Source of the DNA: Escherichia phage vB_EcoM_ECO78
Reading direction: 5' to 3' (one strand)
Length of the DNA: 64,000 nt
Sequence record: PP526941.1
Within the stretch, counting starts at the first letter, position 1, and every line of letters begins with the position of its first letter. Shown here one piece after another: positions 8,831 through 14,701 of this stretch. A program made the position numbers and the translations under genes. Below the pieces are notes generated by a model, which did no database searches, was not told the origin of the DNA, and saw only the letters and a program-made list of their open reading frames with translations.

Positions 8831-9835
8831 TTAGCTCACCAACTCAATCCAAGCTGGACGAAGTACATCTTGTACCATTTTAACTAATTCCTTTTTAATC
8901 AAAGAAGGATTATCTGCTTGAGTTAGAGTAATACCTTCACGAGAAGTTTCTTCCAAAATATCTTGAACAGTTAGTCCCATCACCTTTCCAAAATCATTTG
9001 GACCAATTTCGCCAATTTTAGAAATAACGTTATTTACTCGGTTCAGTGTAACATAACAAGCTAAAATTCCCAGCAATTTATTATCAGCTTCTGACAGTTC
9101 AACTTTAGCTTTAATAGGCTTATCAGACTTTTTCTTTTCGCTAAATTTAGAGTTCTTGCATTTGATGGCTACACGATTGCGATTAGGCAGCCAAGAAGGA
9201 TAACAAGGTTTCAATACATATCCTTCAGCGGTAAATACTTCGCCTTTTGCTTCAGAATTCCAAACGCATTTATTTGCATCAACTAATCCAGCGTGGTCTA
9301 CTGTAAAATTATAATCTTGGACGACAGAATCTAAATCATTTGGCAATTTAATAAGCTCTTCAAATTTACCGCGACCTAAAAGTGGAGCCATTTTAAATTT
9401 AAACGTATTACAGAATGATTCCATCATATAATCATCGACATAAGTCACATCACCACTTTCTGTAGTAACAATAATGTCAAATACATAAAAATCTTTATCG
9501 CCATAATCGACATTCTTCTGAATGCCAGGTCCAGCGAATTCGCCAAAGACTTGATAAGATACAACCGCTGAGGTTTCCATAATATCTTGTACTGCTTTAA
9601 TGGAATCAGCATAATTCTTTAGAATAATTTCATACCCAAAGAAATCTTCAGCAGGAAGAATAGGACCAGTACGTTTAGCACAAGTTACTTTATCACGCTC
9701 AATAATCAATGAGAAATTTGTGCCGTGAATCTTTTCACGAGCTACCCACTCCCCACCAGTCAATCCCAAGCTATAAAGTTTTTCAATGAATTTAGAATTG
9801 TAATGATTTTCAAGACTGCTATATTTTTTAAACAT
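8831..9835 (-). CDS. rnlB: RNA ligase 2 (Rnl2)
   Basis: 334 aa; nucleotidyltransferase KxHG motif (REKIHGTNF); T4 position 24.1. Confidence 0.9.
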
Positions 9836-9844
9836 AATTAATCC

Positions 9845-10123
9845 TCAAAATATAATTTCTAACCAATCACCATCACGCTGATCACTATTAACTTTAAAGC
9901 TGAATCCTTCTTTTCTCAGCCAATCACCAATTTCTTCAGTAATCAATTTATCACGAGCAATACAATAATAATTAAAATGTGTTTTACCTTGTTCAGCTGC
10001 TTTATTAGCAAGTTCCGAAAAATCTTTAATAAAACACTCTAGCTTAAACTGTTTACTTTTTAATGCTTTTTCGCGTAATTGATTAGCAAAAGATTCATTT
10101 TCATAAAGATCATACTGTTCCAT
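9845..10123 (-). CDS. hypothetical protein (position of T4 24.2)
   Basis: 92-aa ORF, ATG start, synteny. Confidence 0.55.
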   Translation of the reverse strand: MEQYDLYENESFANQLREKALKSKQFKLECFIKDFSELANKAAEQGKTHFNYYCIARDKLITEEIGDWLRKEGFSFKVNSDQRDGDWLEIIF

Positions 10124-10325
10124 TTTTCACCTTTTTATTAATATGTCTTTTTCTATAGACAACTTTTTCTCGAGTTTCAAATTTATTCTTAGCAGTCATA
10201 GCTCGAGCCCATAATACAGCCACTTCTTTAGCCTGTAAGTTTAATTCACGAGCAATTTCAATGAATGACTTTCCAGACTCATGAAGAGTAAACACCACAA
10301 CCTCAGTTCTCATAATCAATCTCAT
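10110..10325 (-). CDS. hypothetical basic protein (position of T4 24.3)
   Basis: 71-aa ORF overlapping the downstream gene by 14 nt. Confidence 0.5.
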   Translation of the reverse strand: MRLIMRTEVVVFTLHESGKSFIEIARELNLQAKEVAVLWARAMTAKNKFETREKVVYRKRHINKKVKNGTV

Positions 10326-10393
10326 GTTATCGAGTTGGTGCCATTATATACATCATTTTCTGATTATGTTTTGTGTGCTTTCAAAATGAAGAA

Positions 10394-10409
10394 AGGGGCC
10401 GAAGCCCCT
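10394..10409 (-). terminator. rho-independent terminator downstream of hoc
   Basis: On the minus strand: AGGGGC-UUCG-GCCCCU followed by UUCUUCAUUUUG. Confidence 0.6.
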
Positions 10410-10414
10410 TATGA

Positions 10415-11833
10415 TTATGGATAGGTATAGATGATACCAGTTTCTAAAGCAGTTTTGTGAATGATGTATCCATTACGCGATTCTTGGACATCAACTTCTG
10501 GATAATCTTTCATCATCTTCTGGAGAGTGTAACGATGCAGATAGTATTTACTATCTGGGTCTTCAGTTTTCCAATCTTTACCTTCTTCAGTCATTTTTTG
10601 AATTTCATCCATAACCCACCAACCGCACCAGATATAAGCTGAAGTACGATGTGGAAGAGGATGAACATAAGGCAATTCACCTTCTGGTTCTGGAGCAACT
10701 TTATCAGTCACTTGAACTTGACCTTCTGCTGTGATAGTTTTGCTATCATAATCAGTGGCAGTAACAGTTGCAGTAACTTCAATAGTTTGACTTCCAATAG
10801 ATGATGTATCAACGGTGTATACATTAGTTGACCCTTCTACAGGAGAAGAATCTTTCTTCCATGAATAAGTAATTTGTGCTTCTTCTGGAGCATCCGTAAC
10901 ATTAGCAGTAAATGTAGCCGAAGCATCTTGCTGAACGTTAATAGAAGGAGGAGTCAATGTAACCCGTGGATTCATTGTTTTCTTATTAACTGTCAATGAT
11001 ACTTCATTCGAAGTAACTTCCTTTTCATTGTAATTTTCAGCAGTTACTTGGGCTACGCATTTAATTCTTTTTACTCCACTTGTAGTTGGAGTATAGTTAA
11101 ATGTAGAGTTAGTTTCTCCACCAACTTGTGAATCATCTACATACCACTGATACGTAGCAGACGCTCCAACTGGTTGAGAAGCTAAGGCAGCAGTAAATTG
11201 AACTGGGGTTCCAATCACTCCAGCAGCAGGACTATCAGGAGTTACTGCCAAGGTAGTTGTCTGCGTCTTTTTATTAACAGTCAGTGACACTTCATTAGAA
11301 GTAACGCTTAGTGTATCATAATCTGTCGCGGTTACTTGAGCCACACACTTAATTGTTTTAACTCCGCTTGTGGTAGGAGTGTAATTGAATGTAGCAGAAG
11401 TTGCTTCGCCAACAGGAGAACCGTCAACGTGCCATTGATACGTAGCAGATGCACCTGGTGGCTGCGAAGCTAAAGCGGCAGTAAATTCAATAGCTGTTCC
11501 GATTACTCCAGCGTCAGGGCTATTAGGAGTTACAGCTAAGGTGGTCGTTTGTGTCTTATTTTGAACTGTGATAGTTGTAGTAGCTTCTGCTGTTTCAGCA
11601 TCAGTATCTGGAACTGTATTTGTTGCAACTACTTTAATAGTCTTTTGCCCGGCAGGTCCTTTTAGTACATAACTAAAAGTTGCTTCAGCTCCATCTTGTG
11701 GAACATCATCCACAGTCCAAGCATATGTAATAGTTCCGCCTCCAGTTTCACCACTGGGTGTAGCAGTAAACTGCTTAGTTTCATCAATAACCCCTGTCGA
11801 TGTTTTAGGAGTTATATCAACTGTAAAAGCCAT
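10415..11833 (-). CDS. hoc: highly immunogenic outer capsid protein Hoc with four tandem Ig-like domains
   Basis: 472 aa; N-terminal Ig-like domains and C-terminal capsid-binding region (ELPYVHPLPHR...IWCGWWVMDEI) recognised as Hoc; contains an internal 96-aa tandem duplication. Confidence 0.9.
   Translation of the reverse strand: MAFTVDITPKTSTGVIDETKQFTATPSGETGGGTITYAWTVDDVPQDGAEATFSYVLKGPAGQKTIKVVATNTVPDTDAETAEATTTITVQNKTQTTTLAVTPNSPDAGVIGTAIEFTAALASQPPGASATYQWHVDGSPVGEATSATFNYTPTTSGVKTIKCVAQVTATDYDTLSVTSNEVSLTVNKKTQTTTLAVTPDSPAAGVIGTPVQFTAALASQPVGASATYQWYVDDSQVGGETNSTFNYTPTTSGVKRIKCVAQVTAENYNEKEVTSNEVSLTVNKKTMNPRVTLTPPSINVQQDASATFTANVTDAPEEAQITYSWKKDSSPVEGSTNVYTVDTSSIGSQTIEVTATVTATDYDSKTITAEGQVQVTDKVAPEPEGELPYVHPLPHRTSAYIWCGWWVMDEIQKMTEEGKDWKTEDPDSKYYLHRYTLQKMMKDYPEVDVQESRNGYIIHKTALETGIIYTYP
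10979..11554 (-). repeat. in-frame tandem duplication (2 x 288 bp) inside hoc encoding two near-identical Ig-like domains
   Basis: Residues 94-189 and 190-285 of the translated protein are about 80 percent identical; the underlying DNA blocks are visibly similar. Confidence 0.8.
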
Positions 11834-11842
11834 AAGTTATCC

Positions 11843-12523
11843 TTATTTTAATGTTACGAAAGAAGAGTTGCGTGTTTCACGAATTAAAACTGATCCATCA
11901 CGGTTAATGTAATAAATTAAGCTAAATAAAGTTTGATGTGCTGACGCATGTTCAAAACTAGTTGGGTGAGATTTCCAATCAGGAGTTTCAGCAATCCATT
12001 GATAAATCCACCAAGGAACAGTACAGAATCCTGGATTTTTTCCAATCAGCTGAAGATTCGGACTAAAGTTTTCCGGAAGAGTAAATACAGACGGCTTTTC
12101 AGATTCAATAATCTCAGCTACAGCCTGTTCAAATTTTTCTTCAACAAAGGGAGTATCTTCAATCAAAATATCAGTATTTTCAGGAATTTTATCCGTTTCT
12201 ACTACTTCAATTTTAATGTCAGATTTAACCGGAGAATCAATCAGAAGTGCTGCTTCTGGATTGACTTCTTCATCGTCATATTTTAATCCCTCTGCAGCAT
12301 CAGCAGCATCAATTAAGTCTTTAATAGATAACCCATCAGTCTCTGGCATAGGTTCACTAGCGAGCTTCTGGAGGGCTTCTTCAATATCAACAACGATATT
12401 ATCAAAAGATTTATTCTTTTTGACCTTTATACCAAACTGTTCAGCATATTCAGCTAATTTAGCTTTAGCTTCTTTATTATCATCAAGAGCCTTCAGCTCT
12501 GCAATATAATCTTTATCTATCAT
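11843..12523 (-). CDS. inh: probable inhibitor of prohead protease (Inh/hoc.1 position)
   Basis: 226 aa acidic protein located between hoc and uvsW as in T4; assignment by synteny and length. Confidence 0.6.
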   Translation of the reverse strand: MIDKDYIAELKALDDNKEAKAKLAEYAEQFGIKVKKNKSFDNIVVDIEEALQKLASEPMPETDGLSIKDLIDAADAAEGLKYDDEEVNPEAALLIDSPVKSDIKIEVVETDKIPENTDILIEDTPFVEEKFEQAVAEIIESEKPSVFTLPENFSPNLQLIGKNPGFCTVPWWIYQWIAETPDWKSHPTSFEHASAHQTLFSLIYYINRDGSVLIRETRNSSFVTLK

Positions 12524-12536
12524 AATATTTCCTCAG

Positions 12537-12544
12537 TATAAATA
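12537..12544 (+). promoter_or_regulatory. TATAAATA late-promoter motif upstream of the homing endonuclease gene
   Basis: Exact TATAAATA 29 nt upstream of the ATG at 12573. Confidence 0.4.
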
Positions 12545-12572
12545 TAGATATATTTATTACTCGGAAAATAGT

Positions 12573-13190
12573 ATGTACCACTTTGTATATGAAACAACAA
12601 ATCTAATAAATGGTAAAAAGTATATAGGAAAGCACTCTACTGATGACTTGAATGATGGTTACCTTGGTTCCGGTAAGGCAATTCAGCAGGCTATAAAGAA
12701 ATATGGTGAAAACAATTTCTCTAGAACAATACTAAAAGAGTTTAAAACTTCCGAAGAAGCGTACATGTATGAAGAAGAAATTATAACTCCTGAACTAATA
12801 AAAAGCAAAAATTATTATAATATGAAACCTGGTGGAATTGGTGGAATTGTTATGACTACAGATGTTATAGCAAAGATGAAAGAATCTTCCGCTAAAAGAT
12901 TTGAAAACTCACCGGGCACGGTATTAGGTAAAACTTGTTACACTAATGGAACTAAAAATATTTTTATTAAACCTGGAGAACTTGTTCCAGAAGGATTTGT
13001 AAAAGGGATGGTTCATCCTAATAGAAAGTCCAGAAAAGGATGTAAAGTCAAACCGACTACCACAGGAACTTTTTGGGTCAATAATGGCGCAATAAATAAA
13101 TTAATACAACCAGACGGTATTATTCCCGACGGATTTATTAAAGGTCGTCTCATGAAAAGAGATTCTAAAGGCAAATTTAGTAAGGCATAA
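12573..13190 (+). CDS. segE: GIY-YIG homing endonuclease, Seg family (position corresponds to T4 segE)
   Basis: 205 aa; N-terminal GIY-YIG module (YHFVYETTNLINGKKYIGKH ... YYNMKPGG); free-standing gene inserted between inh and uvsW; stop overlaps the uvsW start. Confidence 0.65.
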   Translation: MYHFVYETTNLINGKKYIGKHSTDDLNDGYLGSGKAIQQAIKKYGENNFSRTILKEFKTSEEAYMYEEEIITPELIKSKNYYNMKPGGIGGIVMTTDVIAKMKESSAKRFENSPGTVLGKTCYTNGTKNIFIKPGELVPEGFVKGMVHPNRKSRKGCKVKPTTTGTFWVNNGAINKLIQPDGIIPDGFIKGRLMKRDSKGKFSKA

Positions 13191-13192
13191 TT

Positions 13193-14701
13193 ATGGATAT
13201 TAAAGTACATTTTCACGACTTCAGTCATGTACGCATCGATTGTGAAGAGAGCACGTTCCACGAATTAAGAGATTTCTTTTCGTTTGAGGCCGATGGATAT
13301 AGATTTAATCCTCGCTTCAGATATGGCAACTGGGATGGACGAATCCGTCTTTTAGATTATAATCGACTTCTTCCATTCGGCTTAGTCGGGCAAATTAAAA
13401 AGTTCTGCGATAACTTTGGCTATAAAGCCTGGATTGACCCACAAATTAACGAAAAAGAAGAATTATCAAGAAAAGATTTTGATGAATGGCTTTCTAAATT
13501 AGAAATCTATTCAGGAAATAAAAGAATTGAACCGCACTGGTATCAAAAAGATGCAGTGTTCGAAGGATTAGTTAATCGTCGTAGAATTCTTAATCTTCCA
13601 ACATCCGCTGGTAAATCTTTAATTCAAGCTTTGCTTGCGCGATATTATTTGGAAAATTATGAAGGTAAAATTCTTATCATTGTTCCAACAACTGCTCTGA
13701 CAACTCAGATGGCTGATGACTTTGTTGACTATCGTTTATTCAGTCATGCAATGATAAAGAAAATCGGCGGTGGAGCATCAAAAGATGATAAATATAAAAA
13801 TGATGCACCAGTCGTTGTTGGTACATGGCAAACTGTAGTAAAACAACCGAAAGAATGGTTCTCACAGTTTGGAATGATGATGAATGATGAATGCCATCTT
13901 GCTACAGGAAAAAGTATTTCATCTATCATATCAGGTTTAAATAACTGTATGTTTAAATTTGGTTTGTCTGGTTCATTACGTGATGGCAAAGCTAATATCA
14001 TGCAGTATGTTGGAATGTTTGGTGAAATATTTAAGCCAGTAACGACTTCTAAATTAATGGAAGATGGACAAGTAACTGAGCTAAAAATTAATAGTATTTT
14101 TCTTCGCTATCCCGATGAGTTCACTACTAAATTAAAGGGAAAAACTTACCAAGAAGAAATAAAAATTATCACTGGACTCAGTAAAAGAAATAAATGGATC
14201 GCTAAATTAGCTATTAAGCTTGCACAAAAAGATGAAAACGCTTTTGTCATGTTTAAACACGTATCACACGGTAAAGCTATTTTCGATTTAATTAAAAATG
14301 AATACGATAAAGTTTATTACGTATCAGGGGAAGTTGATACCGAAACCCGCAATATAATGAAAACCTTAGCTGAAAACGGTAAAGGAATAATTATAGTAGC
14401 TAGTTATGGTGTATTTTCTACCGGTATTTCAGTTAAAAATCTGCATCACGTTGTTTTAGCACACGGTGTTAAATCTAAAATTATTGTATTGCAAACAATC
14501 GGTCGTGTATTACGTAAGCATGGTTCCAAAACAATCGCAACAGTCTGGGACCTCATCGATGATTGTGGTGTTAAGCCAAAATCTGCTAATACGAAAAAGA
14601 AATACGTTCATTTGAACTATCTTTTAAAACACGGCATTGATCGTATTCAGCGCTACGCAGATGAAAAATTTAATTACGTAATGAAAACAGTTAATTTATA
14701 A
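13193..14701 (+). CDS. uvsW: UvsW recombination/repair helicase
   Basis: 502 aa; Walker A (PTSAGKS) and DEAH-like box (NDECH); synteny. Confidence 0.9.
   Translation: MDIKVHFHDFSHVRIDCEESTFHELRDFFSFEADGYRFNPRFRYGNWDGRIRLLDYNRLLPFGLVGQIKKFCDNFGYKAWIDPQINEKEELSRKDFDEWLSKLEIYSGNKRIEPHWYQKDAVFEGLVNRRRILNLPTSAGKSLIQALLARYYLENYEGKILIIVPTTALTTQMADDFVDYRLFSHAMIKKIGGGASKDDKYKNDAPVVVGTWQTVVKQPKEWFSQFGMMMNDECHLATGKSISSIISGLNNCMFKFGLSGSLRDGKANIMQYVGMFGEIFKPVTTSKLMEDGQVTELKINSIFLRYPDEFTTKLKGKTYQEEIKIITGLSKRNKWIAKLAIKLAQKDENAFVMFKHVSHGKAIFDLIKNEYDKVYYVSGEVDTETRNIMKTLAENGKGIIIVASYGVFSTGISVKNLHHVVLAHGVKSKIIVLQTIGRVLRKHGSKTIATVWDLIDDCGVKPKSANTKKKYVHLNYLLKHGIDRIQRYADEKFNYVMKTVNL

Follow-up and report, generated by a model that had tools for sequence, protein, structure and literature searches.

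The head outer capsid (decoration) protein Hoc of bacteriophage T4 is composed of three immunoglobulin (Ig)-like domains and a capsid-binding domain (PMC10385173, PMC11853027). It occurs as one monomer at the centre of each gp23* hexamer, or 155 per head, forms a fibre with a length of 180 Å, and is dispensable for growth (PMC10385173). Homologues of Hoc possess between 1 and 10 Ig-like domains, the latter number being found in Serratia phage Muldoon (PMC10385173, PMC11853027), and the Hoc of E. coli phage PNJ-9, with 283 amino acids (aa), has one Ig domain fewer (PMC11853027); a variable number of Ig domains on a conserved capsid anchor is already known for this family. The present analysis concerns the hoc gene of Escherichia phage vB_EcoM_ECO78 (PP526941.1), positions being those of the 64,000-nucleotide (nt) stretch of this record that was analysed (the window). 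It is an uninterrupted open reading frame (ORF) of 472 codons plus stop on the minus strand (10415..11833), in which the second Ig-like domain (D2) is present as two adjacent, in-frame copies. Probably this is a functional four-Ig hoc with two old D2 paralogues, and represents one state of a copy-number series that is shuffled by recombination.

The 472-aa product matches the PHROG family of Hoc-like head decoration proteins (E 2e-136), and, among structure entries, the 376-aa Hoc of T4 (PDB 5vf3_Z, E 1e-217). T4 Hoc (5vf3 chain Z, 8t1x) is encoded at the same gene position and is colinear for D1, D2 (corresponding to the second ECO78 copy, unit B), D3 and the capsid-binding domain, whereas ECO78 has an additional A-type unit placed in register before D2, resulting in 472 instead of 376 aa. 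In the alignment, residues 1-106 of the ECO78 protein correspond to T4 1-106 and residues 189-472 to T4 93-376, so that the surplus is exactly one 96-aa D2 unit. The protein was modelled with AlphaFold2 on the basis of 26 aligned 472-aa Hoc sequences, and the model confidence (predicted local distance difference test, pLDDT) is given with the domains below, all on the minus strand:

11555..11833, minus strand: Ig-like domain 1 (D1, aa 1-93), aligning with T4 Hoc 1-93; beta strands, pLDDT 83-93
11267..11554, minus strand: unit A (aa 94-189), the first D2 copy, which is extra relative to T4; pLDDT 91-96
10979..11266, minus strand: unit B (aa 190-285), the second D2 copy, colinear with T4 Hoc 93-189
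10691..10978, minus strand: Ig-like domain 3 (D3, aa 286-381), aligning with T4 Hoc 190-285; Pfam Ig_3/I-set match at 289-373; pLDDT 85-94
10415..10690, minus strand: C-terminal capsid-binding domain (aa 382-472) and stop codon, near-identical to T4 Hoc 286-376

Units A and B form a direct repeat with a start-to-start distance of 288 nt, or 96 codons, which was recovered in frame by an independent repeat search. The two copies are identical at 76 of 96 residues (79%) and at 213 of 288 nt (74%), and their local alignment reaches a score of 381 (z = 57 against shuffled sequences), while all other pairs of Ig domains in the protein score between 103 and 124 (31-40% identity, z of 11-14). Being adjacent, of equal length, in frame and closest to each other, the two units constitute a tandem domain duplication. 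Tandem Repeats Finder, run over positions 10000-12800, did not report the period-288 array, an identity of 74% being near the limit of the program. The gene had been named hoc in an earlier reading of the DNA (the original prediction), and its length of 472 aa, the units at residues 94-189 and 190-285 (10979-11554), the 288-nt period and the frame all proved exact. The T4 protein to which it referred, with 376 aa, three domains of the Ig-like type plus a capsid-binding domain, agrees with 5vf3_Z and with the published descriptions (PMC10385173, PMC11853027), and the single extra Ig-like domain deduced from it is borne out by the alignment and the model. The self-comparison of the Ig domains that it proposed as its own test also came out in its favour, and only the wording of the resemblance was too generous, the units having been called near-identical, with a nucleotide identity of about 80 percent.

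The model supports a four-domain array, which had likewise been proposed for structure prediction: residues 1-380 have pLDDT values mostly between 85 and 96 and fold into four successive beta-sandwich domains. Against solved structures, Foldseek retrieved arrays of four Ig domains (Dscam D1-4, ICAM-5 D1-4), extended rod-like repeats and the Hoc of phage RB49 (3shs). Among sequence profiles, Pfam PKD matched above its gathering score (E 9e-8; 32.4 bits versus 23.5) with its best stretch at residues 195-267, in unit B; Ig_2, Ig_3 and I-set matched more weakly, and PHROG 21694 matched residues 408-472 of the capsid-binding domain (E 1e-41). Because four Ig domains are modelled with confidence, it is reasonable to infer that the fibre would exceed that of T4 by about one Ig module. 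The 20 residues at which the two units differ lie predominantly outside the predicted strands (13 of 20, while non-strand positions account for 47% of all positions in a unit).

The two D2 units are, judging by their synonymous divergence, old paralogues and not the product of a fresh duplication. Nei-Gojobori estimates between them are 1.55 synonymous substitutions per synonymous site (dS), which is saturated, and 0.14 nonsynonymous substitutions per nonsynonymous site (dN), with a dN/dS of 0.09, while the orthologous D1, D3 and C-terminal domains show a dS of 0.06-0.37 against eight other phages. From this difference it follows that both copies have been under purifying selection for far longer than the hoc alleles have been diverging. 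The units differ in 61 codons, 41 of which show a synonymous difference, and in 75 bases, 48 of which occupy third positions; the synonymous changes are evenly spread and include the stretches at the unit ends in which the proteins are identical. The longest exact matches between the two copies measure 10 and 14 nt. In T4, the efficiency of recombination drops steeply below about 50 bp of homology. With exact runs of at most 14 nt, the repeat would thus be a poor substrate for homologous recombination within one genome, although the original prediction had considered it long enough for this purpose. Length variants of 288 bp are on these grounds not expected at appreciable frequency within a phage stock, and the allele, which is intact, is probably stable.

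Selection also appears to differ along the protein. D1 is the most variable domain between phages, with 84.9-96.4% nt identity, a dN of up to 0.115 and a dN/dS of roughly 0.3-0.5, and the capsid-binding domain retains 94.9-97.8% nt identity with a dN of about 0-0.009, a contrast suggesting that selection on the distal Ig domain is relaxed or diversifying.

The four-Ig form is, by the counts obtained from relatives, a common allele class of hoc and not special to ECO78, a point that the original prediction overlooked. A search of 5.8 billion protein clusters returned 889 relatives, and among the 120 representatives listed, Hoc proteins of 376-378 aa were the most frequent (81), followed by those of 468-472 aa (30) and of 567-570 aa (9). 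The lengths 376, 472, 568 and 664 aa are separated by steps of 96 residues and correspond to one, two, three and four D2-type units, respectively. The forms are mixed among very close relatives: over the first 25 kb of the window, several Tequatrovirus genomes are all 97.2% identical to ECO78, and the Hoc encoded by PhiZZ30 has 472 aa, that of RB3 and the RB phages related to it 376 aa. A query with unit A found 887 places in 616 phage records, with at least two places in 16 of 40 evenly spaced records, and in a sample of 30 records a 140-nt query spanning the junction was found as one 140-nt piece in about 8-10. Two further counts were set aside, the coverage count of the junction query (479 of 604) because half-matches of single-unit genes were merged into one place, and the count at 80% coverage because a 376-aa gene already covers 79.7% of the query. 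Together with the listed representatives, these place counts suggest that roughly 30-40% of the database relatives carry at least two D2 units.

Proteins of 472 aa that are 87-96% identical to the ECO78 Hoc are found in dozens of independent phages and metagenome contigs, and when IMG/VR was scanned with peptides of Hoc, 21 loci were obtained, five of them close relatives, which is of little value for a census. The exact ECO78 protein is absent from a collection of 15 billion proteins, in which its best relative is 96% identical. Individual INPHARED records served as comparison genomes. The 472-aa Hoc is also present in other Tevenvirinae, among them PhiZZ30 (Serratia), vB_EcoM_G2540 and Pu-Krd-SF4 (Escherichia), SHFML-11 (Shigella), PST (Yersinia) and the Mosigvirus moskry, all with the four-Ig architecture and with DNA up to 94.9% identical to that of ECO78. 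Unit types, defined below, were assigned in these phages except for SHFML-11 and PST: PhiZZ30, G2540 and moskry display the A-then-B order, and Pu-Krd-SF4 is B-like in both units. In moskry, the depositors had already annotated the hoc repeat as a repeat_region. Longer proteins carry the same variable Ig string on a conserved capsid-binding domain, with more units in the 568-aa Hoc of UGKSEcP1/2, while the 664-aa Hoc of slur14 has four units of D2 type, one A, one B and two more that resemble B. Between Hoc variants it is thus not always the same domain that has been multiplied or lost. In the literature searched, which was limited in coverage, an explicit account of the 376/472/568/664 series was not found. 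The original prediction had suggested that domain number may vary within a population; the variation is real between related phages, in 96-aa steps, and within a stock the divergence of the units makes it unexpected.

Several records deserve mention in their own right. Phage slur14 (LN881736.1, locus L026, 373-2367) has the longest Hoc among the Tequatrovirus examined, and some of its D2 units have exact runs of 35-36 nt in common, longer than those in the window. In vB_EcoM-PM105 (MZ234041.1, locus L027, 820-2238), hoc is split into three coding sequences (CDSs) and the frame is interrupted, which reflects either an error in sequencing or a hoc gene in decay. Under the hoc match, several related PM/G3 records have more than one CDS or lack an annotated feature.

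A neighbour-joining tree at the DNA level, built from 22 units of 13 genomes, separates two types of D2 unit. In clade A, the single units of UFV13, Sf22 and a contig (L004) fall with the units that come first in multi-unit genes, and in clade B those of T4, RB3 and another contig (L002) fall with the units in second place. In the proteins, the A core motif (P..EA, unit positions 47-51) is present in 29 of 30 first units of two-unit proteins, and the B core motif (Q/L..GE) in most second units. Single-unit proteins comprise both types: by their core motifs, 28 of the 77 representatives of T4 length are A-type, about 40 are B-type and about 9 are hybrids. Mosaic units are also visible in DNA, since the unit of contig L002 is A-type over its first 48 nt and B-type over the remainder, that of Sf22 is a B-A-B mosaic, and the one D2 unit of T4 belongs to the B type and is somewhat A-like at its 3' end.

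The ECO78 gene is itself a new mosaic when set against the other 472-aa relatives. In the panel, the nearest relative of D1 is the contig L002 (96.4% nt identity), of unit A the first unit of G2540 (97.6%), of unit B RB3 (96.9%, versus 90.3% to T4), of D3 slur14 (96.9%), and of the C-terminal domain again RB3 (97.8%). This switching of the nearest relative from domain to domain indicates that hoc is a domain-level mosaic, arising from recombination between relatives. The number of D2 units has changed more than once, and the three-Ig form of T4 may be a derived state. A diversity-generating mechanism was rejected as the source of the variation, which consists of recombinational mosaicism of shared polymorphisms; no reverse transcriptase was found among the seven neighbouring ORFs (8831-14701) that were scanned.

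Taken together, an old A-B pair within a recombining series would account for the gene as follows. The product has D1, D2-A, D2-B and D3 in this order, and then the conserved capsid-binding domain. States with one to four D2 units segregate among the Tequatrovirus, with the 472-aa form in at least one Mosigvirus, and homologous and unequal recombination between co-infecting relatives would most likely have made and reshuffled these states. Whole 96-aa domains would have been gained and lost in register, with every domain of hoc having its own ancestry.

Several points weigh against this account. The confidence of the AlphaFold2 model is low over the C-terminal domain, the frequency of the copy-number states is an estimate from place counts in the BLAST (Basic Local Alignment Search Tool) searches and 120 listed representatives, and the 13-genome tree ignores recombination inside units, which clearly occurs. 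One B-to-A hybrid among the single-unit proteins does not fit a simple deletion from an A-B tandem and shows recombination between alleles, or gene conversion, to be at work as well, so that the dS of 1.55 dates the divergence of type A from type B, which need not be the age of their tandem arrangement. The data fit both an ancient A-B tandem that suffered repeated losses and alleles that were joined later.

The latter alternative, possible though the less likely of the two, is that A and B diverged as single-unit alleles and were joined afterwards by an unequal crossover during co-infection, longer arrays having formed likewise. In its favour, single-unit genes exist both with the core of type A (28 of 77 representatives; UFV13, Sf22 and contig L004) and with that of type B (T4, RB3 and contig L002), the independent ancestries of the hoc domains point to frequent intragenic recombination, and at least one B-to-A hybrid unit is not produced by simple deletion from an A-B tandem. 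However, the A-first, B-second order (29 of 30 first units are A-type) and the identical boundaries, seen in nearly all two-unit genes, fit a single old junction equally well, and an A-B tandem that loses sequence in register likewise gives units of pure A or pure B type and A-to-B hybrids, the last exemplified by contig L002. No outgroup was found in which A or B units could be recognised, the middle domain of the Klebsiella-phage Hoc being different.

A recent tandem duplication specific to ECO78, with copies that recombine and a domain number that fluctuates within the population, is very improbable. It is in keeping with a repeat that is in frame, in tandem and 288 nt long, and with the 96-aa steps in domain number between related phages; yet a DNA identity of 74%, a dS of 1.55 and exact runs of no more than 10 and 14 nt describe a duplication that is neither recent nor prone to recombination, the A-then-B order recurs in many independent isolates including a Mosigvirus, and no sampled protein has units that are more than 85% identical to each other. 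The chance of an assembly or annotation artefact (a misassembled repeat, or a merged or misread ORF) is negligible: repeats can misassemble and some records, such as that of PM105, split hoc into several CDSs, but the copies, with 75 differences in 288 positions, are not confusable in assembly, the ORF is uninterrupted, and dozens of independent 472-aa proteins are 87-96% identical to it.

A comparable event is found outside these genera. Klebsiella phage Marfa (MN044033.1, locus L006, 3000-4413) encodes a 471-aa Hoc with an in-frame tandem D3-type unit of 94-aa period, the copies of which are 80% identical in aa and 76% in nt, close to the divergence in ECO78. Relatives of Marfa have a 377-aa Hoc, and a further contig (L011) encodes one of 282 aa without the middle domain; D1, D3 and the C-terminal domain are recognisable in the Klebsiella-phage proteins, whereas the middle domain is different. 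Judging from its D3-type unit, its 94-aa period and the different genus, the duplication in Marfa is independent of that in ECO78.

The Ig domains of Hoc bind fucosylated mucin glycans (PMC9271167), and binding to mucin glycans or MUC2 has been demonstrated for the Hoc of T4, PNJ-6 and PNJ-9 (PMC9271167, PMC11853027). In PNJ-9, domain 2 binds MUC2 through S183, L184 and T185 (PMC11853027). Their counterpart is the SLT within NEVSLTVNKK, a motif at the unit end that is conserved in both units of ECO78, with SLT at positions 183-185 and 279-281. By inference from T4, the C-terminal domain would seat Hoc at the centre of the major-capsid-protein hexamer with the Ig array pointing outward. The extra domain would then lengthen the fibre by about one Ig module and expose the D2 surface twice, in two variants, which should alter the reach and the avidity for mucus or cell-surface glycans. 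A more speculative proposal, which we regard as unlikely, is that D2 copy number (1-4) is an evolvable 'accordion' tuned by selection to different mucosal or surface niches. In these phages, which are highly recombinogenic, arrays would persist only because synonymous divergence has removed deletion-prone homology, and A and B would have distinct glycan specificities, making the fibres multivalent and multi-specific.

The model of 'bacteriophage adherence to mucus' is built on Hoc, which also serves as the principal scaffold for display on the T4 head, and the three-Ig protein of T4 is one of several natural lengths (3, 4, 5 and 6 Ig domains) that occur among very close relatives. This length series and the two types of D2 unit offer a natural panel for relating fibre length and domain valency to mucus or cell binding, immunogenicity and display geometry. 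The message of the ECO78 allele itself is modest, as it belongs to a common class.

The surroundings of the gene are those of T4. The order rnlB-24.2-24.3-hoc-inh-segE-uvsW, in which 24.2 and 24.3 are small T4-like ORFs, corresponds to the T4 gene order and matches the annotated genomes of RB3 and PhiZZ30, so that the position of hoc between 24.3 and inh, in the T4-type late region, is conserved; the genes flanking hoc are 96.4-99.5% identical to those of PhiZZ30 and RB3. The following neighbours were delimited in the window:

11843..12523, minus strand: inh, prohead protease inhibitor (PHROG 1051, E 2e-102), directly upstream of hoc, in the same order in RB3 and PhiZZ30
12573-13190, plus strand: segE (hoc.2 in RB3), a GIY-YIG-type homing endonuclease gene between inh and uvsW
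10110-10325, minus strand: 24.3-like ORF of 71 aa

The segE gene is 98.9-99.5% identical to the copies in PhiZZ30 and RB3, above the values for the surrounding genes, and at its position a gene is unannotated in G2540, UFV13, Sf22, moskry and slur14. In relatives, the annotations give the 24.3-like ORF 186-216 nt (61-71 aa), its length varying with the choice of start codon, and the record of Sf22 notes a GTG start.

The consensus of T4 late promoters, TATAAATA, is present in 19 copies in the whole window, compared to 8.45 expected, a number that none of 100 shuffled sequences reached; examples on the plus strand are located at 1469, 1528, 2089, 4057, 5006, 5727 and 7483. This excess is consistent with a region of late structural genes. 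On the minus strand upstream of inh-hoc an exact copy of TATAAATA is absent, and a version with one mismatch, AATAAATA, is located near position 12550, approximately 30 nt before the start of inh.

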